Source: Amphiscolops sp. MND2022
Lineage: Eukaryota
Reading direction: 5' to 3'
DNA: 64,000 nt
Assembly (NCBI GenBank): GCA_964187785.1
Contig: OZ076409.1
Location: 59,768,001-59,832,000 of the forward strand
Shown: positions 1 to 41,024 of the stretch, in pieces
How the letters are laid out: every line of letters starts with the position of its first letter
How positions within the stretch are numbered: the stretch's first letter is position 1
Made by a program: the position numbers and the translations under genes
The notes under the pieces: generated by a model
What the model saw: the letters and a program-made list of their open reading frames with translations, nothing else
Databases searched by the model: none
What the model was told of the DNA's origin: nothing

Positions 1-2865
1 AATGTGCTCAATATGTCGATGATATCGGCATTGCTGCAAATGACGCCGAACAACTCATAAAGAACCTGCGGGCCACTTTCCAATGCATCCGCGAAGCGGG
101 ATTGAAGCTCACAATGCACAAATGTCATTTCGGAGCGACAGAAATCGACTTTTTGGGTCGAACGATCACGCCAGTCGGAGTACGTCCACAGCGACCACGA
201 GTCCAAAATTTCCTAGAAAACACGAAATTCCCGAAATCAAAGAAAGCACTGCAGAGATACCTGGGATTTCTCAACTACTATCGTAACTATATTCCCAGGC
301 TATCAGAAAGACTAACACCATTCTTCAAATTATTAAAGAATGATGAAAAAGTCCTAGTAACACCGGACCTATTGGAGAAATTTACCGATATCAACAAAGC
401 ACTTGACCGCTGTTGTGAATTAGCACTTAAACAGCCGCTACCGAACAAGCAAATAGCCCTAATGACCGACGCCAGCTTTATGGCCGCTGGGTACGCAGTC
501 CTAATTGAGGATGATCCACAAGAAAAATATACTTCAACGAGGAAGGCGTTTGCTCCGGTAGCTTACGGGTCAAAGACCTTTAGTCCCGCACAATTGAAAA
601 TGTCCATTTATGCAAAAGAATTCTTAGCCATATTCTTTGCGTTCAAGGAATTTGGACACATCTTTCGACGCCAAAGCCGGTAATTATACTGACCGATAAC
701 AAATCCGTCACGCGTTTTTTTCAAACAAAGATAATACCACCAACGTTGTGGAACGCATGTGATTACGTTATTCAATTTAACTTCACAATAGCACACATTC
801 CCGGTAAAAACAACACAGCCGCAGACTACTTATCACGCCTAGAAATATCACCAAAGAGAAATTGATTCTTCGCATCAGAGAAGATATTCCCACTACGCCA
901 ATTGAACTTCACGTCCAATCAGCAGGGATCACAGAAGAAGAACAAATCTTCTATACTGACGATGAAGATGAGACAGAAGAGCAAATCTGGCAAAGGAAGA
1001 AAAAATCACGAGACAATCCTTCCAATCAATTACCGGATATTTCTTTTCAAAAATTTACCACTCATCACAGCAATTATCAAAAATTACCCATTTGTCAAAA
1101 ACTAGCCAATACCAACACTGTGACTATAGAGCAAAACAATGACGTTATACTACAACAACTTAAGCTCAAAATTCAAAAAGAAGAGTATTCTGAAACAATC
1201 TTGATACAAGATACAAGATATCAGCACTACCTACGCCAACTAGACCGACTGTCCATTCAAAACGAAATCATCACGAGGCAGTATTACGACGAAACTGGCA
1301 CTGTCAAATACAACCAAGTGCTCTTACCAAAACACCTAGTAACTGAATTATTAGAATCCCTTCACGGGAAGGCCAATCGCCATCCGGGCATTGCAAAAAT
1401 GTTACAAGAAATTCGTTCCAAATATTATTATCCTGGAATAGCGAAAATCGTCCGCAAATGGGTTAATGGATGTGAAACCTGCATAAAAGATAAAAGAACT
1501 CCAAATGAGTTAATAACTCCTGAGCTCCTCAATTTGCCAGAGTGGACTTTGGGTCCAGAAGACGCTATGCAAATAGACCTATTACCGAACCTCCCGCCGA
1601 GCGGAGGCTACGAAAATATTATTACTGCCATGGACGTTTTTTCACGTTACCTGTTCGCTTACCCAGTTACTGATGCTTCAGCTGCAAATACCGCTAAGGT
1701 CATTATCGACATCATGACCAAACATACGTATTTGCCGACGACTTTGATTACCGATAAAGGATCAGCCTTCACATCAAAGTTAGTAGCTGAAATTGCGCAA
1801 ATTTTGGGCATTCAAATTAAATGTGCGACGACGAAACACCCACAGACCATAGGAAAGCTAGAAAGAACTCATGCCAGTCTTAAGACTAACCTCAAAATGG
1901 CCTCAGGGGAGTATAGACGTCAGTGGCACAAGTACTTACCGTTAGCAGTCCTAAATTACAACACGTCCTACCACTCGACGTTGGGCTGCGAACCATCAAA
2001 GATATTTCATGGCCGCATACCGTACAATATTTTAGACCATAAATTGGGGCTCAACCCAAACCCACAGGTCCTTCCCACCACGGACTTTGCTGAGGAATTC
2101 CAACGTAGATCACAGGTTTTGATTGATTCCACAAAGAAAAATATTATGCAGTCTTATTTGAAGTACAAAGAATACTATGACCGAAAGGCCAAAGCAGCAC
2201 CTTTGAAACTCAATGATTATTGCTTCATTCTACAACCTATAGCTGACCATCAAGGATCAAAAATCCCATTCCGCGAATTCCGTTGGATTGGCCCTTACAT
2301 TATCGAAAAAGTTTTACCAAACGATAATTATATAGTTCGCAAACTCAATTCCAACAAAACGCAAATTTTACACAGAATACGTCTCAGAAAATATGAGCCT
2401 AATACAGACTTACAGGACGTTCGCCCAGAAGGGAATTTACAGCCAGACGATGAAATTGTCATTCCCCAAGATGATCTCTACGTAATCACGTGGGAAACGA
2501 ACTTTGAGGACTTCGCGTCCACTCGACGTCAACCGACCTACGAGCAATCAACTGAACGACCAGAAATTACGAGCGGCGAAGATACTAACTTCGACCAGCC
2601 AGATCAGATCTTGACCGATGTGGACCTACAGTCCACTAGACATGACGAGACGGAAGAAACTCTTCCTGAGCGAATCATGCCCGATTCCGATGATGACTCA
2701 ATTCCTGGTGAGGAAACTTCATCAGGGGGGAGCGATACTATCGTGCCCGAAGTATCAGAAAGCGAAAACGACGAAATGATTGTAGAAAATGAAAGCCCTA
2801 GAGGAGGGAGATATAACCTCCGTCCGAACCCTACCCCTAATTACTCAGAAGAATACAGATACTAG
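1..2865 (+). pseudogene. pol: pol of element 1 (RT C-half, RNase H, integrase), frameshifted near 667 and 858
   Basis: QYVDDIGIAA at the window start; RNase H MTDASF..GYAVL; integrase H..HPG..C..C zinc motif, QIDLL / TDKG / GKLERTH DDE residues, WIGPY (GPY/F) motif. Split over ORFs 102-683 and 862-2865. Confidence 0.95.
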
Positions 2866-3087: not shown

Positions 3088-6000
3088 TTAGTCTTTACTG
3101 CCACACTGACGCAGACTCTTAGCAGTCTGGACCAATTCGGAATCTGACAAGAGATGAGTAGGACGGACATTCTTCTTAGGGTACTGTAGGGTACTGGGGG
3201 ACTGCTGGACTGTGACAGTACTGGAAGCGCCCACCTTGCCAGCTTTGCTCTGAAGTCTGCGTTCAGGATCCAACTTCGACAAAATCTCAGTCCTCCCGAA
3301 ATTGTCCAAACCCGACCACGGGTCATACGTGTCGCCAAGCGCAGTGCGACCGAAAGTAGACTCCATTTCGAGGAATTCGGAGATCGAGGCATCGCTGGTC
3401 ACTGACTCAACTGGATTAACAGCTTGGCTAAAGAACGATTGCACTGGCAGCACTATGTCCACTAGCTTGCTGGTAGGATCATCCGTGTTGACAGAGCCGA
3501 ACTTGACTGTCGGGAGATCTCTAAAAGGCTCATCTATGCAGAGACAAGCCAACTTGAAACAACTAAACAACAATGGACGTGTAGACAGAGTTGTTTGGCC
3601 CATGAGGAAATCAATTGTATCCTTGATCAATAGTGTAGGTTGATCGAACTCTGCAAATTTAACGCGCAACTCGTCGACGAAGGACAGGTACTCTTCATGT
3701 GCTGGGGCCTCTTGTTCTTGGGAAAAATACCCACGAAGACGGAAGACGGTAAATAACTGGCCGAAGCATTTCGTGGCCAGAGTGAGAGGCAACTTCAAGA
3801 GGATTTCCAGGTCAAAGCTGGCCAAACCTTGGGCGATGTTGGTGGTGAAATTGAAGTGACTACGCGTCTCTTTGAACAGATGAGTCACGTAACTCCTGGC
3901 CAAACGTCCAAATTCTTCCTTAGCCTTCTCTTTCAATGTGTCGATTGACGTCTTCTCTCCTTTCTGTTCATGCTGCTCAATCTCTGCTTTCAACTTGCAG
4001 GCATGGTCAAGTTTCGCTCCAAATTTGGTTCTGCTGAGAAACACGGGGACGCTGAGGGCCAGAGCAGTTGTGGTATCCAGGTCCAAGATACTCGCGATGT
4101 CTTCTTCAGCAGGCAAAGCAGTGGGGAGAACAACGCGCTTAGCCAATTTGCGAAGGTAGAGACAAAGCTGTCGGAAGGAGTAGAAGGCCCTGTCTCGCCG
4201 GCCACTGAGACTGAGTGAGAAGTTGGTGGTGTCTGAAACAGTGAATCAACCATGAAACCAGATTATGCCTTAAAAGACCTATGGTCCCATTGTCGTAACT
4301 AGGACTAAGAGGATTTATTTTGGGACAGTCAAGCTTAGATTGGAAATTCGACAAGGCGCAGCCCAGTTCCAGTCAGATGCATCCTATTGAATTATTATGA
4401 AGCCATGTGGAAACCAAAGTGCAAGGAGAATTAGAGTACTAACAATCGCGGACAAGCTTCCCAAAGAACTCGAGTCTGCAAGGAAAGAAGTCATCGTGAA
4501 TGACAGATCGTTCGAAGTTTTGGGGCTGAAAAGAAATGAAAGCCATCGAGATTTGCCCTACTAGGGACTATGAGTCTAGCTGTCGCAAATTGACCAACCT
4601 GGTTTCTGACTCCCTGCATTTGCTGTTGAGGTGAATGCTCGGAAAGGTAGGTGATCACCGTTTTCCAGTTAGCCATCAACTCCTGACACAATTTTGGGAT
4701 TGTGGACACGTCAAGCTTGCAAGTTTTAATGGCCTAAACAGAAAACCCCACGTCAAACCGGACCAAGCTTCGGGCGGTACTAGGCACGTAGACTGAGGGA
4801 CTTACCTTAGTCAACTCAGGGGTGAAGAGAGTCCATTCCATCTCTAGACTTCCACTCAGGCAGACAACCAAGTACTGTAACACTGAAAAGAAGTCAATGC
4901 GTCCAAACACGGAGAAACTGTCTTTGTGCATCAACTTCTTGATCGCAATCTCGTCGAAAGTGGTTGGTCGCTGTACCCCATGTCTGGTGAGTGGGGACCG
5001 ATCTAACAGATGGACTAGGCCATATGTAGCCCCAGAGCAGCACACTAGATCAGCCTCAGCAGATATCGCTGCAAGAAGGGTAGACACAAGGCTGACTTCG
5101 GCTGATGTTTGTCCACTGGCCCTGCCGGTTCGCAGTAAGTAGACCCGGCACAATTTGTCAGCTTTCCAGAACCTGACGTGAAGCAAGAGGAAAACCCCCT
5201 GTGGTTCGAATTCTACAGAGAATTGTCCGGACGTCAGGATATCATTGCCAATGATTGGAATGATTTGTGTGAATAGATGATGGAACAACACCTTAAACAC
5301 ATCCTTAGATTAGTACGAACCGGAACATGTGCCCACTCAAGAACTATTGTTCAAATCATGGACTGTGACTTATCAAATCTAGTCAAGCTTGCATGATATA
5401 GGGATAGGACTAGAAGTCAATCAGACGTGAAGAGACTACTTACTGAGAGTCTAGTTGTGCTCCAGTCGATATCACTGGTGATGGCCTGATGATTCAGTGC
5501 AATGCCAATTTGTTGCCAGAGATCACGCAGGACTTGGACGTCTCCAGACAATGGTAAGAAACAGCCGAGCACAGAAATTTGCAGTCTGGCACGATTTTGC
5601 GGTGACGATGCCATATAATCCACGCCTGCCATTGCCTCGTCGTAGAATGGCAACTTCTCCCCAATGTCTACTAGTTCGCAGTTAATGAAGTGAGGCAGTT
5701 CCAGCTGGAGTTGATAATTGGAGAGCACTTTACCATCTTGACCTCTCACTTGGTATCTGCGTCGCTTAGTAAGGGGGTCTTCAATAGTGAGGTACTCATA
5801 CCTCCAGCGCTGATCTTTACGCAGATGACGCTCCGTCGCGAAATGTCGCAGGATTTCCTTTGGACCCTTTGCACGGATTGAGACATTGCACTTGCAGATC
5901 TGGCAGTAGATCTTGTGCTTGTTCCATTTCGGATCAACTGGCCCAGACACGAAAGTTCTAGTCCAAGGCATTGTCTCGAAGTACTCCTCCTTCATCACTC

Positions 6001-7438
6001 GGCCTATTCGTCTCCTGGGTCGTGCTTGGCCCCTAGGTCGAGTGCGAGATGAAGTTTGTCTCCGGGCTTGGCGTTGCTCGTTAATAGCCTCCTGTCTCAC
6101 GTTGGCGAGGGTTTGAGCCCCAGGGCTGGACACGGCAGGAGAATGTGGGTCAGTCTCTAAGTCTACCTGTTGATTGCTGGCAGTGGTCGGAGGAGCAGGC
6201 ATCGCTACACTTGATTGGAAGTCCGGTTGGGATTCAGCCTCACTGGTCATGCCTGAACTTGCGCCGCCTCTACGTGTGGAGTAGGTAGCTACGGAATCAC
6301 TTCCGATATCTGTGTCAGTATCATGGCCAGACATCGAAGGAACACGCCTTCTAGAAGCAGTTTTTGCAGGACTACCCAAGTTCAATCGGCTCGCCCGTTC
6401 CACTACGCTGCTAAGCATCTCAAAAGACGCTCGGGCACTTTCGTCTGCTACAATTCTGAGGATGCTGGTAATTTGATCCTGATTTAGCGCAATGACAGGG
6501 TGTCCTGGATCAAGGCAGATAGGGTTTGTTTCTGTGAAACATTGTTTGATGATAACCCTGCTGGTACCTGACAACGGTGGCGGATCAGTGATGGGTGGCA
6601 AATCGGCAACGTTTGAATCATGACTAGATTCATCGCGGCAAGAAATCTCACGAACCTTTGCCGGGCAATACAGCGCTTGTCCCAAGGTAGACCTAGCCAT
6701 AGATCCGGTGTCGGTCTCCATCTCAAAGCAAGAGTCTTCATCTGTTTGGTACCGGTAGTCCATTGGCCCTTTGCTGACTTGCGGATCACCAGACCCAGAA
6801 GCATCGATCTCTTGTCTCCCTTCCTGTGCTCCTTGAAGGTTGGGAGTAACTTGCGGCTCCTCAAGGACTTGTTCCACTAGCCCTATGTTAGCAGGCTGAG
6901 ACGGGCCCTCAGTGGTAGTAGCAACAACCCCGACTTCAGGATTAGATGCCATCAGGCTTTGGTCAACTACTTTGCTTGCTGACGTAAGGTCCTGTCTTCC
7001 GATGGTGGTGTTATTCGTCCCTTCTTGCGAATCGGATTTGTCCAGGAAGACGACTCTAGGGACGCTTTCTGTAAGTTGGACTTCGGGGATCATCTCATTC
7101 AGCGCAGGAGTAACAGCAACCAACTCACTCACACTTGACTTTGCCTCAACAGGAATCTCAGTTGCACGACTAGCGGGATCTTGCTCAGCGCTCTCAAGCA
7201 ACTCAGCTGTACGCCTGATGTAGGCTTCGCAGCTTTCAGTGTCCGTATTGGAAGACAGCTCAACTATAGATCTTATGTCCGTTGGCGACCCTCTGTTCTC
7301 AGACTCTAACATCTGTCCAACTGTTGGGGAGTCAATTTCCATCTGTTCGGTGACGTTTTGTTCTGGTTGGCCGTCCATTTCTTTGCCTAAACGGAAAGAA
7401 ATAAATTTTCGCGATCCACTTCCGTTAAAGAAATCCAT
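3088..7438 (-). CDS. Spliced antisense accessory gene of element 1, ~1,290 aa: low-complexity N-half, BED-like C2H2 finger, putative degenerate hAT-transposase core. Exons 7438-5444, 5291-4806, 4733-4444 (possible 31-nt intron 4598-4568), 4232-3088
   Basis: Zn finger IYCQICKCNVSI..G..EILRHF...RH. GT-AG introns 5443-5292, 4805-4734 and 4443-4233 join the ORF-track fragments in frame and match element 2 in position and phase. Confidence 0.8.
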
Positions 7439-8909
7439 CTTATCGCGTTTGAAAGACTTTCGAAAGCAAGCTTATTATTTGTTCATACCTATGGTTGAAT
7501 ATTTCACGATGGAGGAAGTGAAAACTAGTCAATGGGAAGCCCTGATCAAGCTCAAAATTGACAAAATAAGTTGAAAGAACCAACCTGATGTTTATCCAAA
7601 TGGAGAACAGAATTGGTGGAGCAAGACGTGGCTGACTGAAAGGATTCTTGGTCTGTCCGAATCGGAGTAGTGACGCGAAGGATGAGCAGACTGAAACAAA
7701 GTCGTAAGACGGCGGATACTGTTGGAAGGGTGACCTATGCCAATTAGACTGCTAGTCCAATTAGTAGAATCTCGAGGAATGAACAACGTTGGTCGGGAGT
7801 ACTGTCAACAAGTTGGAATACTCGTAGAAGAATAGTTCAATGTTGTCTAGGAGAAACAAGAAGGGTGAACTAGATGAAGAATTCTGAACCGAGATTGAAG
7901 TCTCAAAAGTGGACTCTACGTCGATCTAGGGACAATTAGACCAGTAGTCCTGGAAACGAAGTCCAACGAGAAGATGTAACTAGAAGAACTATCCAAGCAG
8001 GAAATATTTTGTGCAGATTTGGGGATCTAAAACTGCTGTTGAATGATAGAATTAGAATTGGGAATGCAAAATGTAACAAAGGATTAACAATTTGAAAGTC
8101 GTACTGTGAACTGTGAAAATTAGCAAACTGGTTTACTATGCTTTACGGCAATTAGACTGAAAGTCTCACTTACAAGTTTTACTTCTTACCGTTCAACTTG
8201 ACTCTCAAGACTGATTATTACTCAATCGTATTTTACGTTTATTTCATTTACATCAAAGGACGTCGTGGCAAAATACAAGTCATTTATTATTACCAAAGCT
8301 ATTAGCTCTTTTAATTACCTATACACTATGATCTTCAGTGTTACAGAACCTGCCAGTGATGTACATTCAGCAATCATTTCTTTTCCATTCCTTTGTTCCA
8401 GTATTAGAGTTACCATCATTACCATTATTAATTTCATCCATTTATGCCATTTTACCATTTTCATTCAAATTCATTCAGAATTATTTATTCATTTATCAAC
8501 ACGCTCTGATTGGACAGTTGGTCTTTGCTAGCCGCTGAGACCGACGGTCTTTGATGACACTTCACTAGTGTTAATGAGTGATGATAAACAATCTCATCAC
8601 CCATTGTCACCTCTTCAATAGTTAATACAACCACTTGAGATCAAACTCAAGCACTTATCAACTTTACAAGCGGCTGATCATCAAAACGAAATTGAGAAGG
8701 GAACCCGCTTAATAAGGAAATGTTAAGAAACCAAAGAGGGCTGCAGGGAAACTTTCCCTAACTTATTTTCCCGCGAATTTTCGACCCTCTGACCTAAGGT
8801 CAATCAGCCCGAGGTAGCCATTCTTCTGAATCTCAATCTACAAATCAGCAGCTCACTTTCATACTCAAGAATTGCTAAGAAAATCTTACTAAAGAGATTT
8901 CAAACAGAT

Positions 8910-9728
8910 ATGTCTCTACAATTTGCAGTAGAAGATTTAATTAGCCCCTTGGTTAGCCTGTCTTATCTATCCTCAGAGGAAGAAGACATGGACGTGGACG
9001 ATCCACAAAAAGCCCCAGACGAGAAAGGTTATGACAGCGACATAGAAGTGATCGCCTGTTACAGCGAGGCTCAGTCCACTCGACCATTGGGGATAGCGGG
9101 ACGTGCCATGACCACTGAATTCACGGACGATGATGACTTAACGCTACTGGAGGAATTGTATGGCAGGTCAATAAAGACGGACACAGAGCCCCCTAGCGAC
9201 CTTGTAGACCAGATATTGGGCATTCACCCTCCTAGCTATTCCAGAAGACTCAGTCAGGAGCGACCCATTGCTGAGTGTGCAAGAATTAGCCCAATTCCAG
9301 ACACCCCACTATCTCCACCTCCGCACGAGCAAGGGTGTAATGTCAATAACGCTGGCAACCCGTGGTCAGATGATGACTTCCCTTATCAGCCCAATAACGC
9401 ACATATTACTGGGATTGCCATAAGCAACAGCGGGGTGTGTGGGCTGCCGAACCAAGTCGCCTTTGGGGACTGCATAGTGTGTGGGAAGTCTTTTGAAACA
9501 ATACGAGAGGAGATCACCTTCAATTTTTTGGAGCAGACTCACCTCGTGGGTGAGACGTACAATACCCGACTCAGACGAAGAAACGCCTTTCAGGCAGGAA
9601 TGCTTGCAGGCTCGTTTACTGTCATCCCCCGGGGAGTGTCGCAGGCTGCCGCCTGTGATGGAAACAGCTACCAAGTGATGGTGGATGAGAACGACCTGAG
9701 ATATATGCCAGGAACACTGCCACTTTAG
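8910..9728 (+). CDS. Accessory ORF3 of element 1 (272 aa, acidic, one CxxC motif, unknown function); last 92 nt lie in the 3' LTR
   Basis: Uninterrupted ORF. Shares IAGRxMTTE, PxSPPxHExG, CxVCGKS and VSQAAACDG with the element 2 homolog. Confidence 0.8.
   Translation: MSLQFAVEDLISPLVSLSYLSSEEEDMDVDDPQKAPDEKGYDSDIEVIACYSEAQSTRPLGIAGRAMTTEFTDDDDLTLLEELYGRSIKTDTEPPSDLVDQILGIHPPSYSRRLSQERPIAECARISPIPDTPLSPPPHEQGCNVNNAGNPWSDDDFPYQPNNAHITGIAISNSGVCGLPNQVAFGDCIVCGKSFETIREEITFNFLEQTHLVGETYNTRLRRRNAFQAGMLAGSFTVIPRGVSQAAACDGNSYQVMVDENDLRYMPGTLPL
9631..9636 (+). promoter_or_regulatory. Short polypurine-tract candidate (GGGGAG) abutting the 3' LTR
   Basis: Purine run directly 5' of the LTR TG; much shorter than a typical PPT. 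Confidence 0.45.
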
Positions 9729-11383
9729 GCCGCGTATACCGCTGATCTGCTGGGAAACTTAGTGCATGACTTATATTTTTTTTCACAAACAATTAGAATG
9801 TGAATTTATGCTATTACGGACCGAAGGTCCACTGGTCTTAGTATGACTTGTAGTACCAATTGCATTTTAGTATTCATTACATAGATATAGCATTCATTGT
9901 ATTCTGTTTGTTGATTTTATACGCTGCGCATGTACACTTTATATATATATTCACGTCTTTATGCTTGTGTATTCTACATGTAAACCAGTAGTGCAGAATG
10001 TATTAATTATCGATGAAATGTAGCTGTAATAATCAAGATAACTGGCAAGGTAAAGGAAACGCGTTCGAATTGTCCGCCGCGTTGGTCAATTCGAACGCGT
10101 AGTCCGCAACCTTAATTAGCCAATCACATGCGAGCTTTCTTATTCACTTACTTGCTGGCCTTTGCGGCGACGCAAGTCATATTAGACTGCCGGTCCACTT
10201 ATTGTCGGTGTATTTACTTTGATGATTATTAATCTTAACTAAGTGCAATACTATTGGTGCATATAAGTATGAGCTCAGCACAAGTCTTGCTGTCATTAAT
10301 ATGAAAGGCGTACTGCCTCTTCCCCCCCATTTTCCTTCCTCTTTATCTATTTTTAGATCTAATACACGTAGAGATGCTAATTTTAGAATTACAGGAACAT
10401 GTGACGTAAACTTCCCAGGGCCTTTTGCCCGTACTTGTGTCTATATTTAGTTTGACAGCATTACGTCATAGTGACGTTAGTATGTAAGTTGCTAATTTTA
10501 GTAACATGACTATACATATTACTGCATGTCATGATGCAAGGACTATAAATACGGGGACCACTAGTCCCAAGGGATGAATCTTGACGATTAATGATGATTA
10601 CAAACCTACAACTCACCGCTATCTATCACCATCAGTGTTCTAATCATTTTGAGACTACAAGTCAACCTTCGCTTTAGTAGACTGCTTTAGTGATATATCG
10701 TTCTGTTATTGTTTGAATACTCAGTTCAAGTTGGGATATTTGATACAAGCTCGAATATACTCTTACCTGAGCAAATATTTCTTCAATGCCTTCTACTAGA
10801 AAGCAAAGAGCTAAGGAAAGACGCTCTAGGCAATTAGACATCATGTCTGATACAGAAAACTTAGACGTAATGCTTGGATCATATCCAAGAAATGAATTAG
10901 GAAATGACTCTGATAGGAATGGTGAAATAGACCTAGGGTCAGATGGGACTAGAGGAGACCCACTGCAAAATAGTGAGGATTTCAGGTCACTTTTAAACTC
11001 AAACAGTAACGAAAATAGTGAATCGACGGTTGAGACTATGAGGCTCGTTAATTCTGAGATTACAAAGAAAATTGATGAACTGAGAAGAGAACTTAATTCT
11101 CAGCTGGTTGATGTCATTAATTCAGCAATCACTGAAAAGGTTTTACCTGATATTAGAAACTTGGTTTCCAACCAAAATCCAGTGTTTCGGGAAGAAGTGG
11201 ACCAGAGGTCCAGTGGACTTAACAGGACCACCGAAGCGAAATTCGTTAAAAACGCTTGGAAAGGTAACTCAAAGCTTAATATGGCAACCAGTAGTCGACA
11301 AGACTACTTTAGGAGAAATTCAGAGAATTCTCAGTCTAGTGACGATGGTCATGAAGAAGACATTATGACCAATAGTCACGACA
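9637..11383 (+). repeat. 3' LTR of element 1 (1,747 bp)
   Basis: Perfect 5-bp inverted termini TGTCG...CGACA. First 22 nt identical to the element 2 LTR. Ends at the same gag codon position (His-Asp + 1 nt) as the element 2 LTR. Confidence 0.85.
10544..10551 (+). promoter_or_regulatory. TATA box candidate in element 1 LTR
   Basis: TATAAATA ~240 nt upstream of the gag ATG (10786); CCAATCA further upstream at ~10120. Confidence 0.5.
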
Positions 11384-11574
11384 GGGACGAATTGACGCTT
11401 GGGACGAATTGTCGCCTTTTGGAATTTGGGACGAATTGTCGCTTGGGACGAATTGTCGCTTGGGACGAATTGTCGCCCAACCACTTTTCCAAAGCCACCG
11501 AATCAACACCAAGCCCGAAAATGAAGACGAAGAATTCGGAGATTACGAAAATGAATTGGAAAACCCAGTTTTGA
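10786..11574 (+). CDS. Gag N-terminal segment encoded in the 3' LTR (199 codons), reading out 63 codons into flanking DNA
   Basis: MPSTRKQ...MSDTENLDVMLG is homologous to the element 2 gag start MPTTRKQ...LSDIENLDIMLG. Homology stops at the LTR end (11383). Confidence 0.7.
   Translation: MPSTRKQRAKERRSRQLDIMSDTENLDVMLGSYPRNELGNDSDRNGEIDLGSDGTRGDPLQNSEDFRSLLNSNSNENSESTVETMRLVNSEITKKIDELRRELNSQLVDVINSAITEKVLPDIRNLVSNQNPVFREEVDQRSSGLNRTTEAKFVKNAWKGNSKLNMATSSRQDYFRRNSENSQSSDDGHEEDIMTNSHDRDELTLGTNCRLLEFGTNCRLGRIVAWDELSPNHFSKATESTPSPKMKTKNSEITKMNWKTQF
11384..11478. repeat. Tandem array of a 17-bp unit GGGACGAATTGTCGCTT (5 copies, one 11-bp interruption) flanking element 1
   Basis: Units at 11384, 11401, 11428, 11445 and 11462 read directly. 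Confidence 0.9.
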
Positions 11575-17095: not shown

Positions 17096-18975
17096 TGTCA
17101 TGAACATTTAGGTCAGGAAAATCATTGTTTAACTGATTATCATTTTGTTCATTTCTCAAGTTGTTCTTTGCGTTTAGGTTTCGTTGAACTTCGGAATTTA
17201 GTTCCGGTCTCTCGGACAGAACGTCCCATCCCTTTCTGGTCCCGTGTCCCGATCCGGCCATAATAACATTTTGGATCTGAGGAAGCACCTGAGTGCTTAA
17301 TGCATCGCTTATGGCCCTTTGTATCTGGTCACTCACAGAATTCATCATCTCATCCATTTCTCGTGAAATGCGTGAATTTAATTCGCTTGACAACCTGTTT
17401 ATTTCAGCGCTAGAGTTGCCAGTAACTGAATTGCAATCACACTCGGTATTTGTCCTAGAGTTAATATTTCTCTGGGTTTCACCCATGTTCCCATCCTCAT
17501 TTTCGGACTCGTTGCTTGCAAAGCTCCTAGGTCTCCTGGGCAAATTACTATCAAACTGCCTTCCCTTTCTCTACTGTTAAAATGGTTTTCACCTAACATG
17601 ATATCTAAATTCTCGATATCAGATAACATTTCAAGTCCTCTTGACTTCCTTGCCTTTTTCTGTTTTCTAGTGGTTGGCATTGAAACAGTTCCGAATTAAA
17701 TAAAAAATTAAACAACTCGGAAAAACAACAGCGGAGCCGTTTGTAATTCAATCTTTACTAGTAGCGTCTCAAATGAATTGTGTCCCACTCAAGCCAAGTA
17801 TCAGTATATATACTCATGAGGGGATGACATTCACATACTTTACATACTTCTAGTTAAGATTAGTTTTTTGAGGAATGTAAGGTACAACGTTTCGAAAGAT
17901 ATTTAAGTTATCAAATACCTCCAGTTACATATTTTACATATCATTGAATAGCATCAGAGCGCATATTCCAACAAAATCCCAATTGGGTGAATTCCTAACA
18001 TAGACATGTATGTCATAACTGTAACATCAAACACTCAACATTTTGGTCGGCAAACATACCGGTACTTCAAACAACATACTCATGGAATTATTATTATTTC
18101 ATTGTCAACAAATATCATCACGTGTTGATGGAATGCGAAACACGCACCATTGGTCTGTCATACTGTCACGTGCCGCCATGCGGCTGTTAATCCGCACAGG
18201 GGGAGGCAAGATCGAATATTGCATGTTCAGTTATCACGCTATTGAAACAAAGTGTATTCTAGTAAGGCCGAAATTGGCCAAATCCAAGTTAATAGTATAG
18301 CATCAAAGGAAGAGGGGTAAAAGGCCTTATTCGGCTTTTGATTAATACTTGGTTTATTAAACCCACAAAGATTAACACTAGTGTTTTTTAGCACTGAGTA
18401 CACGTCCAGAGAGATTCCTGATTAACCTAATTAGCCATAAGTACAAATAATTCAGCGTTGATGTATTTCACCAAGACGGCCGGAACCGGCCGTTTGACCA
18501 AGGCATAGAATGAAGTGCATTTATTCAGTCAATTGGCCTTACTCGGCCATTAACAATTCAGAGTTGCATTGAATTTGTAAATTGGAGCGTTTTGATTGGC
18601 CAGGACAGCGAGCTCAAGTGACGCTTTTGGATTAGCACTGTGAATCACTTGAACTCGTTTCCTATACCACTTTACAGTTGCTTGTATTTACGTATCTTTC
18701 GATCTGATAATTCACATTCTAACTGCACTTCAATACATAGTAACCCGATCTGGATATTTCCAAATCGCATAATTTTAACAGACTATTATGTATACGTGTA
18801 TAAATGAGAAAACTTAACAACGTCAATAAATGCAACATATCCAAAACAACAAAGCAGTGTAAAAGTTTGTTTAGTTGTTCTTTTGACTAATAAATCGAAA
18901 GCGTGCCGGAAGCTGTCTCCTGTCCTTGCGTAGTCGTCGTGATCCTAGTGCCGTCACAGGCGGCAGCCTGCGACA
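17096..18975 (-). repeat. 3' LTR of element 2 (1,880 bp), containing a frameshifted copy of the gag 5' segment
   Basis: About 98% identical to 31371-33235 by eye (roughly 40 substitutions, one 17-bp and two 1-bp indels). Confidence 0.96.
17805..17812 (-). promoter_or_regulatory. TATA-like element in element 2 LTR (5' LTR copy at 32081-32088)
   Basis: TATATATA ~125 nt upstream of the gag ATG. Confidence 0.4.
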
Positions 18976-20715: not shown

Positions 20716-23700
20716 ATGGATTCTTTTCGAGGAAGCATACCGCCAAACTTTATCTCTTTTCGTTTAGAGAATCAAACAACCGAAGTTGTCAGCTCACCAG
20801 CCGACCTTCCTAACAATGTTCCAACAGTCAATCCCCCAACTGAGCAGGGTAGGCAAGTCCAAAACCCGGTCTCATCTCAAGAAACGCTTCGCAGTCGAGC
20901 AGATGACGTCACCTCCACACACAGTGCTGATAGTGACCCAGATGTTACTGCATACGCGGAAAACATGGTGCGCCAGCTAGAAGGAGCACAAGTGCTCGAC
21001 CGACCACAGGGAGGAGCAGGGCAAATACAGTCAACTCAGGATATTGTTCCTGGTACTCAAGTAGATCCTCCTGCCTCGCCTACTACAGGGACCAGGAGAG
21101 CAAGCACGCCGCTCTCAGCCAATGAGGGGGAAACCACAAATGCTGATCTGTCTGCTCTAGAGTCTGCTCGGTAGAGACGTCGGATTCGCAATTGGCTGAA
21201 CTAGTAGATGTTGACCTCCCAGGCAACAACACGAGTGGCAATTCACCTGTACAACAGGACACTGAAGTAGCATCCTCCGTTGGCGATGCCCCCCCTCTCC
21301 CTGGTGGAGTATTCAAGGTCCGATACCTGACTGACCCCAGTGGAGACGAAGGTGCAACAGATCAGTCCAGCGTGTTTGTTCCAGTAGCCCTATACGGTCG
21401 TCATCCCTTCTCTCACACCTCTGAAACTGAAGGGGGAGACGATACCGGATCTGAGCTTCTTGTTCCCGGCACCAGTGGGCAGACGCCCGGGCAAGGCACA
21501 ACCCAGAAAGAGCCTCCACACCTTTCCGGAAGAAGTCGAGCGATCCTCAAAGAGTATTTCGACGAATCACCCTCCACTCGATTTCCAGTAGGACAAACCA
21601 CCGTCACCTTCACTGAGCCGCAGGTGTACCACCTTCTTAGAGTCCTCGCTGATGAGACCCTCGGAAGGTCCTTTTCGACTATGGAACGCATGGTCATTGA
21701 TGCAGTCCGAGGTAAGCCAACCGTTGCTCCATCCAGAACTGCGCACGACTACTCAGGCAGGCGCGCTAAAACTCCAGGGCTCGGTGATGCAGGAGATTCT
21801 AGTGGAAGTGACACTGAAGGAGATGCTACGCTAAGGGGCAAAAACTCGGAGCCATCCAGTTCTGGAGAGACCGGCGATTCCTCGTGTTATGGGGAGACTG
21901 ACAGTGCTACCGAAATGGATTTAATAACCAAATCCTTCAAGAAGACTATTAGTGCCCAAGATGCTCCGGAGCCTCAGTCGTCGAGCCAGGACGTCCAAGG
22001 AGACATTGATACTGTCACGCCAGAGTACAGTAGCCAAGATGCTACACTGCTTGAGGTCAGAGATCAAGCCCTGGGTGCAACCACTGCCAGCTCGTCTAAG
22101 TCCAGGAACAAGAAAGGCGACAAAAACCTTTCTAAACGAGGCGTCCCCATGCGAGAGGAATTCTTTTCCAAATTCGGATGGACGAGATCCTTCATAACTG
22201 GCCCTGCTGACCCACTCCATAACCCTCATATGGTTTGGTGTCATATCTGCAAGAAAAATTTTTCAATCAAGTCTAAAGGTCCCTATGAGATACTCAGACA
22301 CCACCGGACGGAGCGCCATTTGCGGCGAAACCAGCGCTGGCGGTATGAACACTTGCGAAGTACTGACCCAATTACCGAGAAGACGCAGCACCGGGTCCGG
22401 GGCGGCAATGGGATTGCCCCAATTCAAGAACGTTGAGCTTGTGGACATAGGAGAACGATTCCCCTTTTACGAAGATTTTGTCAAGGGATCCACAACGGCC
22501 TTAGTCACTCCATTTTCCCGCATCAAGACCCAACTTTGCCTGGTCGGAGACTTCATCAAGACTCAAGGTGATATGATGGTCATACGCAATCTGTGGTCCC
22601 GGATGGGGTCATTCACCAATCACCAAGCCACCTTCAATGACTTTGATTGGGGGGAAGAGAGATATTCGGTTAGTACCATTTATTTTAGTTGTTTATGCCC
22701 GGATCTAGCTAAGGGTTTAAAGAGGGTTTTGTCTCTAGACAATCTTCCAGCACTTCTTCATCTGCTGCCTTGACGACATAGCAGAACAAGTCAACTCCCA
22801 ACAGTGCTTTGTCCTTGAGTTTGAAACAATTGGAGTCTACAAGCACATGTCTGTCAAGTTCTAGAAAGGCTCCTAGCTTTGTAGGGTGTTTATTTGCCGC
22901 AGCTCTCGAACCACTACTGTCGTGACCGGGGAGCTGGGGTCCCTTTCCCGGTTCCTTTCCGCCGTGTCCACCAAACCCGGAATAGTTGCCTGTTCCGGAT
23001 GCCACTCGGACCTACCCAGAGCCATCGACGAATCAGAGTATTACAACCAGGGAGTTCAAAGTTGCCTGCGTTTCGAGCACTTCTCGCTACCACGACTCAT
23101 GCACAAAACCAGCTACAGCGTCTTCGGGAAGATTGCTTTCTTCTCCGTCCTACAATCCCTGATGGTCTCCTTGGGCGAATCTCTTATGGAAGACTGGGTA
23201 ACTCGTAGCCCTGAACTCACTGAAGTAAGTAGTTTCATGGAATTTCCACTGGGGGAATAAGGTCTAGGTAGGGTCGTTTCATATGTCCAACGTGTTTATT
23301 TGGATCCGTTTGCTATTTCCAGGCTATAACCAGTTGTAAGCTCGATGTGACAACTCTACCCGTCCTCTGTCGAGAACGTATCGCTGAATGGAAGTCCGTG
23401 GTTCGGTACCTCACTACCCATGCACCTCTGCAAGAAGGATCAGGATCTAGAGGAAGGGTTAGATTTTCCCCATTTTCCACTTGAACCCATAGGAATTCAA
23501 GTCGGCCTTCTTCACTTGGCTGATCTAAGGTCCACTTTCAATTGCTGTATTGATGTTGGTCTGTTCCAGATGCAAAGCTTTGAATGGTCACTGATATGTG
23601 ACGAGTTCTTCACCGTCAAGCTGGAGTTCTTCAGTAAGATTGTCAGTGATTGTTAGGGTAGTTTGTTATAAAACCGGTGATGGTAAGTTGTCCTGAACTG

Positions 23701-24883
23701 GACATTAGTTTTGTTTTCAGTCGTGACCAGCTTCTCAGTGAGCCTGCAATATCGCCGTGATTCGTCCTTCTATCTATGCGGGGAGGTCAGCCATTTCCTC
23801 AGCCTGCTTTGCTCTCGGATCTACACCCCAGACACTGCCCCTGTAGCTAATGCCTGGTTTCTCCTCTTCCGTTTCCAGACAAGCGAGGGCACTTTCCTAC
23901 CCGGGGATGAGTACCTGATCCGGCTGAAAATGACCAACAAGGTGTCAACGGCGTGCAAGGCAAGGGCCGAGGGTATCCATTTCGGCCAGAAGACTGAACG
24001 GGCTGCCATCTTAGCTACCGCTAAGACAGTGAAAGCTGACTTCGTCAAGGACAGCCAACAGTACATCCAGTTCTTGATTAATGGAATTCTCCAGAGGACT
24101 GGGCTCAGCACCAATCTCGTGAAGGGACTGACAGCCTTCGACCCCTACATCATGCTAAAAAGGCCAATGGATGTGGCTCTGCGGCACTTTGACGTGCTTT
24201 ACAATACCTTCGCGCTACGATCCTGGGTCGATGATTCAAACGAGTCTCTATGACGAGACCAACATATTCAGCTACTAGACCACCTCCGTACTTCCTACGG
24301 TTCCAGCTTTGGCATCACTAGTGTGGCAGCCGATCTGATCGCGTTCCTGATGGGGCTCGAGTTTCTCCACGAGCGTTCTCATCTTTTGTACCTTTTTAAG
24401 TTGAGTTGTTTGTGTACAACCGTTACCAGCTCCAGTTATCCAGATGTCGTCTTTGGAGATGTCACCACTGCCGGAGGGCAAAACTGATTCACTGACTTGG
24501 TTTTACCTTGTCAGAATTACATGGCTAATGTTGCTGGTTCCGTCATTCGAAGCAGTGAAGATTCCAACCTTGCCAAGTTTTCTGCCCTCGCTGCATCTTT
24601 TGGACGCGCTGCCTTCTCCCCAGAGTACGACCCTCGGGCTTACACGGACACTTTTGGCCGTTCAAAGATATATAAGTCCCTCTTAGCCACCCATCGTAAA
24701 GCCGATTCAGCTCCGAAAAGGGCCTCAGCGCAAGGTGATTGGGAGGGAAGTAGTACTGTGGGTGACCAATCTGCTGTGAGGTACCCTAGCAGCAAAAAGC
24801 GAAAGAGGGATAGGAGCGGTTCGCGATCGTCCACATCTTCTGTTGCTGGAAGTCCCAGTAAAGATTCCTCCACTAAGTCCTGA
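20716..24883 (+). pseudogene. Spliced antisense accessory gene of element 2 (disrupted). Exons 20716-22668, 22739-23224, 23323-23651, 23721-24883
   Basis: Colinear with 3088-7438: MDxFxGS...FISFRL start, WCHICKKNFSI..G..EILRHH...RH finger, FKLSCLC, FG..A...YDP...D.FGR. Several premature stops and frameshifts. Confidence 0.8.
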
Positions 24884-25127: not shown

Positions 25128-28100
25128 CTAGTATCTAAAGTCTATTGAGTAGTTTGGGTTAGGATTAGGCCTGAGATTATATTTCCCTCCTCTAGGGCTC
25201 AGACTTTCATTTCTGCCATCATTTTCAGATATTTCGGGCACGGTAATATCATTTCCCCTGTTTGGAGAATTTTGCGCATCGTTTTTATTCGTCGATTTTC
25301 TTTTTGAAAGTTTTCCATCATTTTTCAGTTTTTCGTCCGTATTCGGCAAAAGTTTTTCTGGGTTTTCTGGGTAAACGGCCGGATTCGGCCAATCAGATTC
25401 TTCATTGCGTCATTCTCGCCTACGTCACCATGACTCGGTTCTGCCGCATTCGGCTGTTCACCATTCGGCAAGCTAGTCGGAATAGGATCGTGTCCTCGTG
25501 TTACGAGCTGCTCGCCAAAGTCTGTTTCCCACGTTATGATATATAAGTCGTCTTGCGGAATGACGATCTCTTCATCAGGCTGTAACCACTGTTCTCGGAA
25601 ATTGTCCTCAAGCGGTTGGTTAGGGACAAACTTTTTAAGGCGAATCCGATGCAATATTTGAGTCTTGTTTGTATTGATTCGTCGTACAATATAATTCTCG
25701 TTAGGTAAAACTTTTTGGACTATAAATGGTCCGACCCACCTATAATCACGGAATGGAATTTTTGATCCTTGATGATCCGCTTTCGGCTGTAATACAAAGC
25801 AGTAGTCATTCTCCTTTAGTGGTGCGGCTTTTGCCTTGCGGTCATAGTAATCTTTGTACTTGATATATGACTGCATAATGTTTTGCTTTGTTTTGTCAAT
25901 CAAGATTTTTGTCCGGTTTTGTATTTCTTCAGCAAATTCGGTTGTTGGGTTGACCTGCTCGTTTGGATTATTTCCAAGCTTGTGATCCAGGATATTATAT
26001 GGAATTCTTCCATGAAATCCTCTCGTCGGTTCACAACCGATGCTGGCATGGTAACTAGTGTTGTGGTTTAGTTAGTGACAAGTATTTGTGCCATTGTCGG
26101 CGGTAATCTCCACATGCCATTATGAGATTTGTTTTCAGCGAGGCATGGGTCCGCTCCTATTTCCCAATTGTTTGCGGATGTTTTGTTGTTGCACATTTGA
26201 GTGTTATGCCCAAAATTTGCGTCATCTCCGCAATGATTGTAGAAGTAAATGCAATACCTTTGTCCGTAATAAGCGTTGTCGGTAAGTATGCATGCTTGGT
26301 CATAATGTCAATGAGCGCTTTTGCTACGTTGATCGCCGATGCGTCCGTAAGAGGATAGGCGAACAAATATCTGGAAAATACGTCAATCGCTGTTAGGACA
26401 ATTTCAAATCCTCCACTTGGGGGAAGATTCGGCAATAGGTCAATTTGCATGGCGTCTTCAGGTCCAAGGTCCCATTCGGGCAAGTTGAGCAGCTCAGGCG
26501 TAATTGTTGCGTTAGGGACTCGCTTGTCTTTTGCGCATTCTTCACACCCCTCTACCCATTTTTTGACGTGTTTAGCCATGTGAGGGTAGTAATACCTTTG
26601 TCGGTTTCCTGCAACATTTTTGAGATACCAGGATGTTTATGTGCCGTTCCGTGAAGAGACTGAAGTAATTCCTGGAGTAAGTGTTGCGGGAGCAGAATTT
26701 GATGGTATTTAACGTTCCCTGTTTCATCAAAGTTTTGCCTTGTCAGGATTTCGTCCTTTAGTACAATTCGTTCCCGATTGTTTGCATAGTGCCTGTATCG
26801 AGCATCCTGATGCAGTAGATTTTCTGAATACTCTTCATGAAGCAGTTTTGCTTTCAATTGTTGTAGTACCGCATCTTTGGATTGCTCGATAATGATCTGG
26901 TTCGTCTTCCTCAATCGGACTTGTATATCAGGGTGTTGTTTGGCCAGATTTGTTGATAGAGTTTGTATTGTAACCGTGGGCTCATGAATAGCTGGATTTT
27001 TCCTGATTGTTTATTTCCTTGCCCAGTATTGTTCGTCTGTCTCATCATCGTCATTAGTGTAGAAGATTTGTTATTCCTGTGACACCCCTGCTGATTGGAC
27101 ATTTATTTCGATTGGTAACGTTTGTACATCTTCGCGGATCTTCATGACTAGTTTGTCTTGCGGGTCTGCTTCCAGACGGGACAAATAGTTGGCGGCTGTA
27201 TTTTGTGCTCCTGGGATGTGCGCTATGACAAAATTGAACTGAATCACATAATCACACGCGTTCCACAGTGCTGGAGGTTTTATTTTCGTTTGAGAAAATC
27301 GCGTGACAGCTTTGTTATCTGTAAGCATAATCACCGGTTTCGGCGCACCCCAGAAGATATGTCCAATTTCCTTGAATGCAAAATAAATTGCAAGGAATTC
27401 TTTGGCGTAAATTGACATTTTGATCTGTGCTGGGGTGAAGGTTTTTGATCCATATGCTACAAGGGCATATGACTTTCTGAGTGACGTAAATTTCTGATTT
27501 GGGTCATCATCGATTAGGACTGCATATCCGGCTGCACCAAAACTGGCGTCAGTCATTAATGCGATTTGCTTGTTCGGAATGGGTTGCTGTAGGGCCAAGT
27601 CGCAACATTTGTCTAGTGCTCTATTGATTTCTTCGAATTGCTGGACTAATTCTTTCGATACTAGGACCTTTTCGTCACTTTTCAGCATCTTGTAAAATGG
27701 AGCAAGGCGTTCGGAAAATCTTGGGACATAATTCCTGTAGTAGTTTAGGAATCCCAAATAGCGTTGTAAAGCCTTTTTCGACTTCGGGAATTTGGTCTTT
27801 TCCAGAAAGTTTTGCACATTCTGTTTCTGGGGCTTGACGCCTTGTGGGGTATTAGTCCGTCCGAGAAAATCAATTTCTTTTGCACCAAAGTGACATTTAT
27901 GCATTGTCAACTTAAGGCCTGCTTCCTGAATGCATTTGAACGTTGCTCTCAGGTTAGCTATGAGGTGGTCAGCGCCGTTGGCTGCGATGCCGATGTCGTC
28001 CACATACTGGGCACATTGGTCCGCTTTGATGACTTTGTCAAGGTATTCCCTCATAAAGCTCGAAAATGCGGACAGAGCTTGGCTAAGACCTTGTGCCAAA

Positions 28101-30257: not shown

Positions 30258-31358
30258 GACTCATCATTGGAAGATGAGGATTGGGAGCTTGATGATGTTT
30301 GCTTGTTCTGAGGTTTCTGAGCCTTTGGGTTGGGCTTATTGTCAGTTGAGTCTTCGGGCCTAGTGCGTTTGGGTTTAAGATGTGCACCGGCACCTTGCCA
30401 ACATCTTTCCTCCGGGTGGTTCTTTTTGCCACAAGTGCCACACTCCGGATATGTTTTCTTCTGAGTCGACTTGCCCTGTTGGGCATCTCTCTCTTTTTTT
30501 TTCAATTTTTCGCAGTCCTTGACCATGTGGCCTTTTTCCTTGCAGTAATTGCAAGTGATGTCTGACATTTGCGCAGTGGACAGAGGAGTTTTAGGCTTGG
30601 CAGATGAGGAAGTCATTGTCGCCATTGGTAGGTCGTCGGACTCCTCGAGTGCGATAAGCTCCAATTCTCTCTCCAAATGAGCAACTATCTCATCGTATGA
30701 GCCATTTTCTAATCTGGCCATGTTGACGGACCGCTTCAGTTTTGGTGGCAGTTTTGCGTGAAGCAAGCTGTCAATCATTTTCTGCGCATGGTCTCCAAAC
30801 GCTTTCTCTGCCCCTTGATTCAATTCTTCAAGGAAATCAGGCAGTTTCATCGTATTGGGAACAAAGACCAGACGGTGCCTTTTATGTTTGGCAGTCGCCT
30901 GTGATTCGGGTTTGACGTATTTTTGTCTGAAAACAACTAGTACGTCTTCGAGGGTTTGTCGATTTGTCGAATTGATATTCCTGAATGTCTGGAGAGCATT
31001 TTCCTCAACAATGAATGAAAATGATTAATTTTCATTTGCTCGGTCGTTTCTGGCTGCATCTTGATCATAGTGTGAAAGAGATCTTCGAACAGCTCAAATT
31101 TCTCACTTTTGCCGTCGAACGTCATGGTATTGGAGTTGACTGGGCGTATTGTGAGTTGTTGAGCTGTAGGTCTATTCTGCATCGTAGTCAAGACGTCGGC
31201 CAATCTGGTAATGGGGTCAGGATCTGCAGCTGTAGCGATTCTCTCATGCGCTGGGCTCGTCGTGTCAAGGTTGATGTCCTCATAGGACTGATTGAGATGA
31301 GTTCTTGATGGGATACGTCCTGTGAGAAACTCAAAAACTGGATTTGGAGATTCGTTGT

Positions 31359-31370
31359 CTCCTGTCACCA
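31359..31370 (-). promoter_or_regulatory. Primer-binding site TGGTGACAGGAG
   Basis: Starts with TGG immediately after the LTR terminal CA. Confidence 0.75.
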
Positions 31371-40868: not shown

Positions 40869-41024
40869 TGACTGGCCCATTTTTAACAAGCTTTAAGACT
40901 AAGACCGAAGAAATTAGAAGAGGTCATTTAAAGAAGTAAAAGAGTTATCCTTAGGGTATTTTTTGGTACGGTGTGATTTTCCAGAACTATGTCAAAAAAC
41001 CCTTTTGCCATACTCTATTTTTTA

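Follow-up and report, generated by a model that had tools for sequence, protein, structure and literature searches.

A predicted five-exon antisense gene with four conserved introns inside Ty3/Gypsy LTR retrotransposons

The window analysed here, a stretch of 64,000 nucleotides, carries two elements, A and B, which are Ty3/Gypsy LTR retrotransposons of about 16 kb. In members of their family (at least 108 and at least 150 matches to two queries), gag and pol follow the first LTR, and then come the antisense five-exon gene, the sense ORF3 and the second LTR. The Pfam domains after gag follow the Gypsy order of protease, reverse transcriptase (RT), RNase H and integrase; the last three score above the Pfam cut-off, the protease (E 5e-4) and the zinc knuckle (E 1e-3) below it. 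Of element A, the window includes the 3' part of pol (3..2865, plus strand; RVT_1, RT_RNaseH, Integrase_H2C2 and rve), whose frame is broken in this copy between 683 and 808, and a 3' LTR at 9637..11383 (plus strand; 1,747 nt, TGTC..GACA, target-site duplication (TSD) GGGAC). The 5' LTR of this element (locus L001) lies upstream of the window and differs from the 3' LTR by no substitutions and one gap. ORF3, an extra sense ORF (8793..9728, plus strand) that reaches into the 3' LTR and forms a head-to-head pair with the antisense gene, matched no family in a Pfam search. Element B, on the minus strand, is bounded by a 5' LTR (31371..33235) and a 3' LTR (17096..18975) with 37 substitutions between them and a TSD of GTTTT; its gag-pol region (25325..31971; zinc knuckle, protease, RT, RNase H and integrase C-terminus) is spread over several broken frames. 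In the A-family copies and in element B both LTRs are direct, with TG..CA ends. A primer-binding site comes after the 5' LTR, in element B as well, and pairs over 12 nt with the end of a tRNA-Leu(CAG) gene of this genome (its 3' end plus CCA). At the place of a polypurine tract, the last 15 nt ahead of the 3' LTR proved to be coding and purine-rich only in the final six.

The antisense gene of element A is predicted to consist of five exons and four introns on the minus strand: exon 1 (5444..7438, 665 codons), intron 1 (5292..5443, 152 nt, phase 0), exon 2 (4806..5291, 486 nt), intron 2 (4734..4805, 72 nt, phase 0), exon 3 (4599..4733, 135 nt), intron 3 (4526..4598, 73 nt, phase 0), exon 4 (4444..4525, 82 nt), intron 4 (4233..4443, 211 nt, phase 1) and exon 5, which runs to the stop codon (3088..4232). 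With the four introns removed, copy A reads as a single ORF of 1,280 aa. The corresponding features of element B lie on the plus strand: exon 1 at 20716..22668, intron 1 at 22669..22738 (70 nt), exon 2 at 22739..23224 (486 nt), intron 2 at 23225..23322 (98 nt), exon 3 at 23323..23457 (135 nt), intron 3 at 23458..23569 (112 nt), exon 4 at 23570..23651 (82 nt), intron 4 at 23652..23720 (69 nt) and exon 5 at 23721..24883. Copy B is broken, with frame changes in exon 1 and two stops each in exons 2 and 5. Exons 2 to 4 have the same lengths in the two copies, with a protein identity of 38-56%.

An earlier note on this DNA had described three introns, those numbered 1, 2 and 4 above. All three are correctly placed in both copies, with the ends it gave, GT..AG borders throughout and phases 0, 0 and 1, but the count is wrong: the stretch taken as its third exon (290 nt in copy A and 329 nt in copy B) contains a further phase 0 intron, and the three-intron model was rejected, as joining it breaks the frame and yields 25 stops. 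Considering copy A by itself, the frame could be restored by 47 different GT/GC..AG pairs for intron 3. We chose 4598-4526: both elements then have flanking exons of 135 and 82 nt that are 51-56% identical, the assignment is consistent throughout the family, and it corresponds exactly to the junction found in loci where the intron is absent. Other details of the note stand, namely the 486-nt exon 2 in both copies, a TACTAAT near the 3' end of intron 1 of copy A, the alignment of the quoted exon peptides, and the unlikeness of the intron DNA between A and B (similarity 0.39, 0.52, 0.52 and 0.30 versus 0.38, 0.48, 0.45 and 0.30 when shuffled).

Across 68 further loci, picked as good exon 5 matches and thus favouring intact copies, the antisense gene lies opposite to the integrase in 67 (48/48 in one set and 19/20 in the other), the exception, L113, being a stretch without integrase. 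Splice sites are conserved among family copies: 246 of the 272 predicted junctions are GT/GC..AG at the mapped site. The first 48 loci contribute 180 of 192; among the 80 junctions of the distant lineages, 66 are exact, seven deviate from the profile-mapped end by no more than 2 nt, two are changed and five are absent. Donor sites follow the pattern GT(A/T/G)AGT, and at acceptors a T-rich tract precedes (C/T)AG. These borders and consensus, together with the pyrimidine tract and the constant position and phase, mark the predicted introns as U2-type. Their lengths are free to vary between loci, they sit where the sense strand has no ORF, and reading through all but three of 44 introns (11 loci) shifts the frame or meets a stop. 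The start codon, the N-terminal motif and an upstream palindrome are likewise conserved among loci. The palindrome, a 10-bp candidate promoter element at 7457..7466, about 25 nt upstream of the antisense start codon, has the form TTCCGGAA in 34 of the 52 loci with a mapped start and a variant form in 15 more; the B-type form presumably matches an ETS-type site. Past the stop, a canonical poly(A) hexamer occurs at 108-164 nt in 17/20 loci of the A lineage, and within 400 nt in only 4/40 loci outside it.

The ratio dN/dS is 0.03-0.06 in 13/13 unsaturated comparisons (dS is saturated in the remaining 11 of 24), and the reading frame and exon lengths are preserved down to about 30% identity. Together these patterns, as read from the sequences, show selection acting on the predicted protein. 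They also weigh against an explanation in which the antisense RNA is what matters, through dsRNA, small-RNA or transcriptional control, with the protein incidental, or in which the gene serves the host. Antisense RNA control of retrotransposons is described in PMC7264820 and PMC12786077; even so, we regard this explanation as improbable. Several lineages contain many young copies with open frames, which accords with element-level selection. Trees of the integrase (140 aa, 49 loci) and of the antisense gene agree on the deep split (Spearman 0.80), but two of the four strong splits of the integrase tree conflict; strict co-inheritance of the two is no more than a possibility.

Nine young copies of the A family bear directly on how the introns travel. 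Each has a near-identical LTR pair and sits in flanks of its own; the 5-bp TSD is perfect in eight and has one mismatch in the ninth; and LTR substitutions number 0-3 within a copy and 2-15 (mean 10) between copies. All four introns are present in 8/8 fetched copies, and all 33 full-length matches found at the DNA level for the young family (at least 99% identity over the intron region) retain the whole 1,501 nt of that region. Since these copies combine regenerated LTR pairs, their own flanks, TSDs and intact introns, the introns were copied into new insertions, and the note's idea of a natural intron-bearing antisense gene carried through retrotransposition is borne out. Its analogy to retrotransposition indicator cassettes is reversed, however: in such cassettes the intron runs in the same direction as the element RNA and is spliced out (PMC12786077), whereas the introns of an antisense gene stay. 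Copying is observed here at the DNA level; at the RNA level, the gene would be driven by its own promoter just before the ATG, and the host spliceosome would remove the four U2-type introns to give a protein of about 1,280 aa. The genomic RNA would be the other strand, on which the introns read CT..AC and would remain unspliced, so that reverse transcription would copy them into each new insertion. Gene, splicing and carriage, taken together, we consider very likely.

Six of the 68 loci have precisely lost one intron. Intron 3 is cleanly absent from L037, L107, L114 and L115, and intron 4 from L102 and L109. The same joins occur in public proteins, exon 3 to 4 in P0032 and exon 4 to 5 in P0006 and P0069. 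The precise absences in loci and proteins are an indirect sign that these introns would be removed from RNA. In a tree of the antisense gene, built by a quick method without bootstrap and with L037 omitted, L107 is sister to the intron-bearing L111, L114/L115 are sister to L112, and L102/L109 are nested with L103 and L105. The six loci thus appear to reflect about four independent events, two of them in multi-copy lineages. These two intron-loss lineages have 38 and 23 full-length matches (at least 95% and at least 92%, respectively), which shows that they spread. So far the losses are confined to the two 3'-most introns (6/6 loci), introns 1 and 2 never being lost in the 68 loci; a 3' bias in intron loss is a prediction of the cDNA model, the events here being few. 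Because the losses are exact and nested, we put forward that DNA made from spliced antisense mRNA would, on rare occasions, recombine with the element and remove one intron exactly, after which the intron-loss lineage would continue to spread.

The protein offers fewer clues. Exon 1 encodes a conserved N-terminal 17 aa, a long region rich in Ser/Thr/Pro and acidic residues, a basic stretch and a C2H2 finger of the form C-x2-C-x16-H-x5-H (5825..5905, minus strand). In an alignment of 20 rows the zinc ligands C67, C70 and H87 are invariant and H93 is present in at least 90%; in a larger alignment the ligands are present in 41-42 of 44 rows. Exon 2 is predicted, at low confidence, as three strands, helix, strand and helix, an RNase H-like order, and the protein possibly contains an RNase H-like core; exon 5 is predicted to be mostly helical. 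Both structure models are of low confidence (pLDDT 44 for exon 2 and 42 for exon 5), and fold searches with them gave no clear match. No exon reached the Pfam cut-off, a PDB sequence search gave no meaningful match, an atlas search with exon 2 gave no usable one, and no relative was found in metagenome contigs. A weak search among longer proteins found exon 5 homologs in 0/8,000 candidates. The zinc-finger alignment gave 302 matches to longer proteins; among the 120 listed, all of them unnamed and 387-844 aa in length, none has the full spliced length.

An origin from a hAT transposase is suggested, without statistical support, by a C2H2 finger, a mixed alpha/beta block and helices in that order, as in hAT transposases. 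Atlas leads to PF05699 and to FAM200/GTF2IRD2-like clusters are weak (0.84-0.85, below the tool's 0.9 line). Profile-profile comparisons with three hAT sets, ZMYM1/P52rIPK-type (74 proteins), Ac-type and a third that we take to be CGGBP1-like, gave probabilities of 0.1-0.8%, inside the range of reversed and block-shuffled controls, while hAT-to-hAT positive controls gave 93-99%; in all three the best or second-best local matches fall in collinear places. The PF05699 dimerisation domain was found in 0/28 and 0/50 exon 5 proteins, with hhalign at shuffle level, and no hAT structure was among the fold matches listed. The finger has no match to zf-BED, its best profile match being the finger of Ac-type hATs (E 0.07). 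When the D, D, E triad was sought by eye, without a reliable alignment, only the first position held an acid (Glu); several other acidic residues are invariant. With probabilities below 1%, no terminal inverted repeats and no Pfam match, the likeness is a lead and not membership. It is possible, if rather doubtful, that an ancient Gypsy lineage acquired a complete DNA-transposase gene, introns included, in antisense orientation and retained it as an accessory factor that binds DNA or chromatin without cutting. One class of transposon would then have domesticated the enzyme of the other, and would since have been removing the introns singly with its own reverse transcriptase. An active or recently active hAT transposon nested in the retrotransposon, with DNA transposition or segmental duplication as the means by which the introns spread, is by comparison very improbable. 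The atlas leads and the abundance of hAT elements in this genome speak for it; against it, the profile tests are at shuffle level, no convincing terminal inverted repeats flank the gene, no hAT-type element with an 8-bp duplication was found, position and orientation are constant in all loci with integrase, and the copies are bounded by LTRs (in regenerated pairs) and 5-bp duplications. As a route of spread, hAT transposition is thus largely refuted.

As to function, the zinc finger, the basic stretch and the long acidic low-complexity arm would suit a nuclear nucleic-acid-binding regulator with an RNase H-like/helical, probably non-catalytic body, which would promote transcription of the element or shield it from silencing. 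This role is plausible yet tentative, and so is the explanation as a whole, from gene to function. The same finger and basic stretch, with a possible integrase/transposase-like core, would also suit a protein that anchors the pre-integration complex on chromatin, directs it there or aids nuclear import, the last a role raised for plant antisense ORFs (PMC7264820); we find this unlikely, and the nine target duplications have no sequence in common. Somewhat less likely again is a protein that handles the genomic RNA of about 15 kb (export, packaging or protection), like Rev or Cer1 CERV. The Arg-rich stretch before the finger would agree with this, and an LTR-retrotransposon export factor is described (PMC10309623). 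Intron interiors diverge less than four-fold sites in 8/9 pairs, which hints at RNA constraint, although gapped alignment lowers the apparent intron divergence; nor was there any RNA-binding Pfam family or Rfam match. The regulator remains our preferred reading.

Antisense ORFs in Gypsy elements and the spliced hbz of HTLV-1 are precedents for the antisense gene. Plant Ty3/Gypsy aORF-3R examples (Grande gene23, RIRE2, Retand and PvRetro13; PMC7264820) resemble it in being antisense, between pol and the 3' LTR, conserved and present in most copies. In Grande the antisense ORF has its own upstream promoter; the plant proteins are nuclear, Retand ORF4 has a transposase-28 domain, the sequences lack similarity to other TEs, and no introns are described (PMC7264820). 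The gene described here differs in its animal host, five exons, length of about 1,280 aa and head-to-head arrangement with a sense ORF, and none of the Pfam families of the plant proteins matches it. Another parallel is brtn, which reportedly has many exons; if so, an antisense retrotransposon gene that keeps its introns has a direct precedent there. Neither conservation of its introns across deep lineages nor exact losses are known to us for brtn. It too lies antisense in Gypsy elements, the fungal chromovirus-type, CHROMO-bearing Boty-like elements of Botrytis cinerea (Zhao et al. 2011, PMID 21802103). Where our gene has four short dedicated introns behind an internal candidate promoter, the hbz transcript originates within the 3' LTR and is alternatively spliced into two forms; it is antisense, spliced, polyadenylated and coding, and regulates viral transcription (PMC1459196). 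In the literature covered, with little subscription content and no Repbase or supplements, we found nothing on this family, nor any animal Gypsy element described as carrying an antisense gene with several introns; repeat libraries may nevertheless contain an entry for it. The intron of hbz, for its part, overlaps sense genes.

LTR retrotransposons are usually thought unable to carry host-style genes, whose introns would be lost via RNA. Here a large clade that was mobile until recently carries, as a constant component, a predicted five-exon gene of 4.3 kb on which purifying selection is strong, an unusual accessory gene whose introns are copied with each move of the element. Standard annotation would miss it, as public databases have unnamed, mostly single-exon pieces. 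The clade is also a natural experiment on reverse-transcriptase-mediated intron loss: the gene sits inside an RT-encoding unit, and its intron losses are exact, repeated and so far restricted to the two 3'-most introns.

The antisense gene of element A, on the minus strand from 7438 to 3088, has five exons and four introns. The earlier note had proposed three, at 5443-5292 (phase 0), 4805-4734 (phase 0) and 4443-4233 (phase 1) in copy A and at 22669-22738, 23225-23322 and 23652-23720 in element B, whose gene lies on the plus strand (20716-24883); all three are where they had been placed, with GT..AG ends and the phases claimed. Exon 2 does measure 486 nt in both elements, and the likeness between the intron DNA of A and B is about that of shuffled sequence. 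The count of three did not hold: splicing out only these introns leaves 25 stops, and that model was therefore rejected. An additional phase-0 intron interrupts what had been taken as the third exon (4598-4526 in copy A, 23458-23569 in copy B), and with four introns copy A is a single frame of 1,280 aa, with exons of 1995, 486, 135, 82 and 1145 nt. In copy A by itself 47 choices of extra intron would restore the frame; what singles this one out is how it compares with B and with the family. Exons 2-4 are equal in length in both copies, and protein identity between A and B is 38%, 51%, 56% and 29% for exons 2 to 5, respectively. The copy in element B is broken.

Both elements, found in an animal-type genome of 1.07 Gb, have Pfam matches to RT, RNase H and integrase in Gypsy order; the protease and zinc-knuckle matches of element B are weak. 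Element A spans about 16.4 kb with LTRs of 1,747 nt. Element B covers 16.1 kb; its target duplication reads GTTTT, and its two LTRs differ by 37 substitutions. From end to end the order is LTR, gag, pol, antisense gene, sense ORF3, LTR. The usual polypurine tract was not found ahead of the 3' LTR. Frames span both LTR borders, ORF3 (8793-9728) entering the 3' LTR (9637-11383) by 92 nt and gag (30937-31971 in the window; 6101-7831 in L001, a fetched locus) beginning within the 5' LTR and reading on across the primer-binding site. ORF3 (8793-9728; 18887-19345) represents a separate conserved family with 140 matches at 47-100% identity; it bears a CxxC motif and had no match in a Pfam search. ORF3 and the antisense gene are arranged head to head across 1.35 kb, which makes this stretch a candidate bidirectional promoter. 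The primer site pairs over 12 nt with the end of tRNA-Leu(CAG). Ends resembling tRNA-Leu also occur in a long tandem array with a period near 296 nt (G000:C8:35587798-35650667 and beyond), with 817 matches across the genome, 806 on one strand. Three copies each at G000:C7:62498498-62528983 and G000:C12:14844337-14873793 are spaced by about 14.7 and 14.5 kb, as tandem elements with shared LTRs would give. Just after element A (11384-11480) are short tandem 17-nt units, of which the target duplication is part. Elsewhere the window holds a LINE-type element (36740-39442; its ORF of 900 aa includes endonuclease and RT domains), three copies of a dispersed element whose 185-nt internal repeats are degenerate (12073-13593, 41016-43896, 59093-60697), a perfect palindrome whose 84-nt arms directly adjoin each other (58334-58501), and a host gene exon (60911-64000) with an open frame of more than 1,029 aa and several immunoglobulin I-set domains.

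Retrotransposition carries the introns along. At least 108 genome matches were scored for exon 5 of A, 35 of these at 99-100%, and at least 150 for exon 5 of B. The young family was taken whole as the window copy and eight others: flanks differ in all nine, the 5-bp target duplication is perfect in eight and has one mismatch in the ninth, and all four introns are present in 8/8 fetched copies. The two LTRs of one copy are 0-3 substitutions apart, against 2-15 between copies (mean 10, 36 pairs), the pattern expected if both are made anew by reverse transcription with every insertion. In a DNA search, the 1,501-nt intron region was full-length in 33 copies and split in two in one more, among 40 matches scored. 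Spread as DNA is highly improbable. The spliceosome reads one strand only. Reporter cassettes carry their intron in sense orientation, and it is removed (PMC12786077, accessible text).

Splice signals are conserved well beyond the young family. We sampled 40 loci over the identity ranges of the exon-5 matches (20 of at least 108 for A, 20 of at least 150 for B) and 20 from more distant lineages (out of 114 and 101 matches). In the first set of 48 loci, made up of the 8 young copies and the 40 above, GT/GC..AG was found at 180 of 192 mapped junctions, the 12 misses including point changes in decayed copies, one insertion-bearing locus and one true absence; of 80 junctions in the distant loci, 66 are exact, 7 fall no more than 2 nt from the end mapped by the profile, 2 are changed and 5 absent. 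Donor and acceptor profiles (136 introns) are of U2 type. The gene is opposite to integrase in 48/48 first loci and 19/20 distant ones, the remaining stretch being without integrase. After 14 of the 48 loci had been set aside, their exon lengths being altered or their mapping faulty, 24 comparisons were made, and the 13 of these that were unsaturated give a dN/dS of 0.03-0.06; an RNA-only function, or a host function, appears quite improbable. The start codon and a conserved N-terminal motif were mapped in 52/60 loci. Of these 52, 34 carry TTCCGGAA at a distance of 25-29 nt upstream and 15 carry a variant of it. Only in the A lineage is a poly(A) hexamer common. Intron interiors (L002, L018, L021, L022, L023, L027, L029 and other loci) diverged less than four-fold degenerate sites in 8/9 pairs, for example 0.34 versus 0.53, part of which gapped alignment may explain. 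The exon-5 profile matches 716 proteins (50%-identity representatives), and none of 20 clusters looked up bears a name. Relatives are probably present in other species, as two of these proteins have just 29% and about 40% identity to their best scored match here.

In 6 of 68 loci one intron is missing to the base: intron 3 in L107, L114, L115 and L037, intron 4 in L102 and L109. A quick exon-5 tree (66 rows; L037, L025, L046 and seven young copies excluded) places L107 as sister of L111, which keeps the intron (support 99), L114/L115 as sister to L112 (support 99), and L102/L109 with L103, nested in a clade with L105; together with L037, assigned to the A lineage by identity (64%), this indicates that introns were lost independently about four times. 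Multiple copies exist in the L114 lineage (38 full-length matches at ≥95%) and in the L102 lineage (23 at ≥92%), and L037 is nearly alone. The same exon joins occur in three public proteins, possibly of transcript origin. That introns were lost exactly at predicted junctions is the strongest indication in these data that RNA uses those junctions. The introns may have been lost by recombination of the element with cDNA from spliced antisense mRNA. Template switching of LTR elements onto cellular mRNA is described in the accessible text of PMC5131818; the mRNA here, however, has the opposite polarity, so this step would need a switch during plus-strand synthesis or later gene conversion.

In the protein, residues 21-450 are Ser/Thr/Pro- and acid-rich and include one block that A and B both conserve; next come a basic stretch and then a C-x2-C-x16-H-x5-H finger. 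Exon 2 is predicted, at low confidence, as three strands, helix, strand and helix, and exon 5, likewise, as helices. Of 44 redundant Foldseek rows for the exon-2 model (E 0.03-0.2), 39 are proteins with RNase H-like domains, and a protein atlas gave leads to hAT-derived clusters, all sub-threshold. No Pfam family matched, profile-profile scores against three hAT sets were not above shuffles (hAT-to-hAT controls, 93-99%), and no TIRs were found around the gene. Transposase ancestry is a tentative reading, slightly short of an even chance, and we do not file the protein as a hAT transposase. The genome also holds several kinds of hAT DNA transposon (L058-L083, L116-L135), some with open frames of 600-700 aa.

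Beside the observed position, orientation, splice signals, selection, carriage and exact losses, we propose that an internal antisense promoter would drive the gene, that its transcript would be spliced, and that the protein would act in the nucleus to drive or protect expression of the element, a scheme we hold at a little under even. A protein for integration tethering or import is unlikely, and one for RNA handling somewhat more so.

The brtn antisense gene of Botrytis Boty elements is reportedly multi-exon. In plant and fungal Gypsy elements, antisense ORFs are known between pol and the 3' LTR; a review of them (PMC7264820) treats their origin and function as open and urges that antisense and spliced transcripts be looked for. 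The hbz gene of HTLV-1 is likewise antisense and spliced (PMC1459196). Nothing resembling this family appears in the accessible text of two reviews covering giant elements and the classification of TEs (PMC5718144, PMC6431247) or of PMC8532177, and we found no description of it in the accessible literature, that is, outside subscription papers, repeat libraries and supplements. With the plant and fungal antisense ORFs, brtn and hbz, the principle is thus not without precedent. What seems to be new is the occurrence in an animal, the size, how deeply the introns are conserved, the recurrence of exact losses and a possible origin from a transposase.
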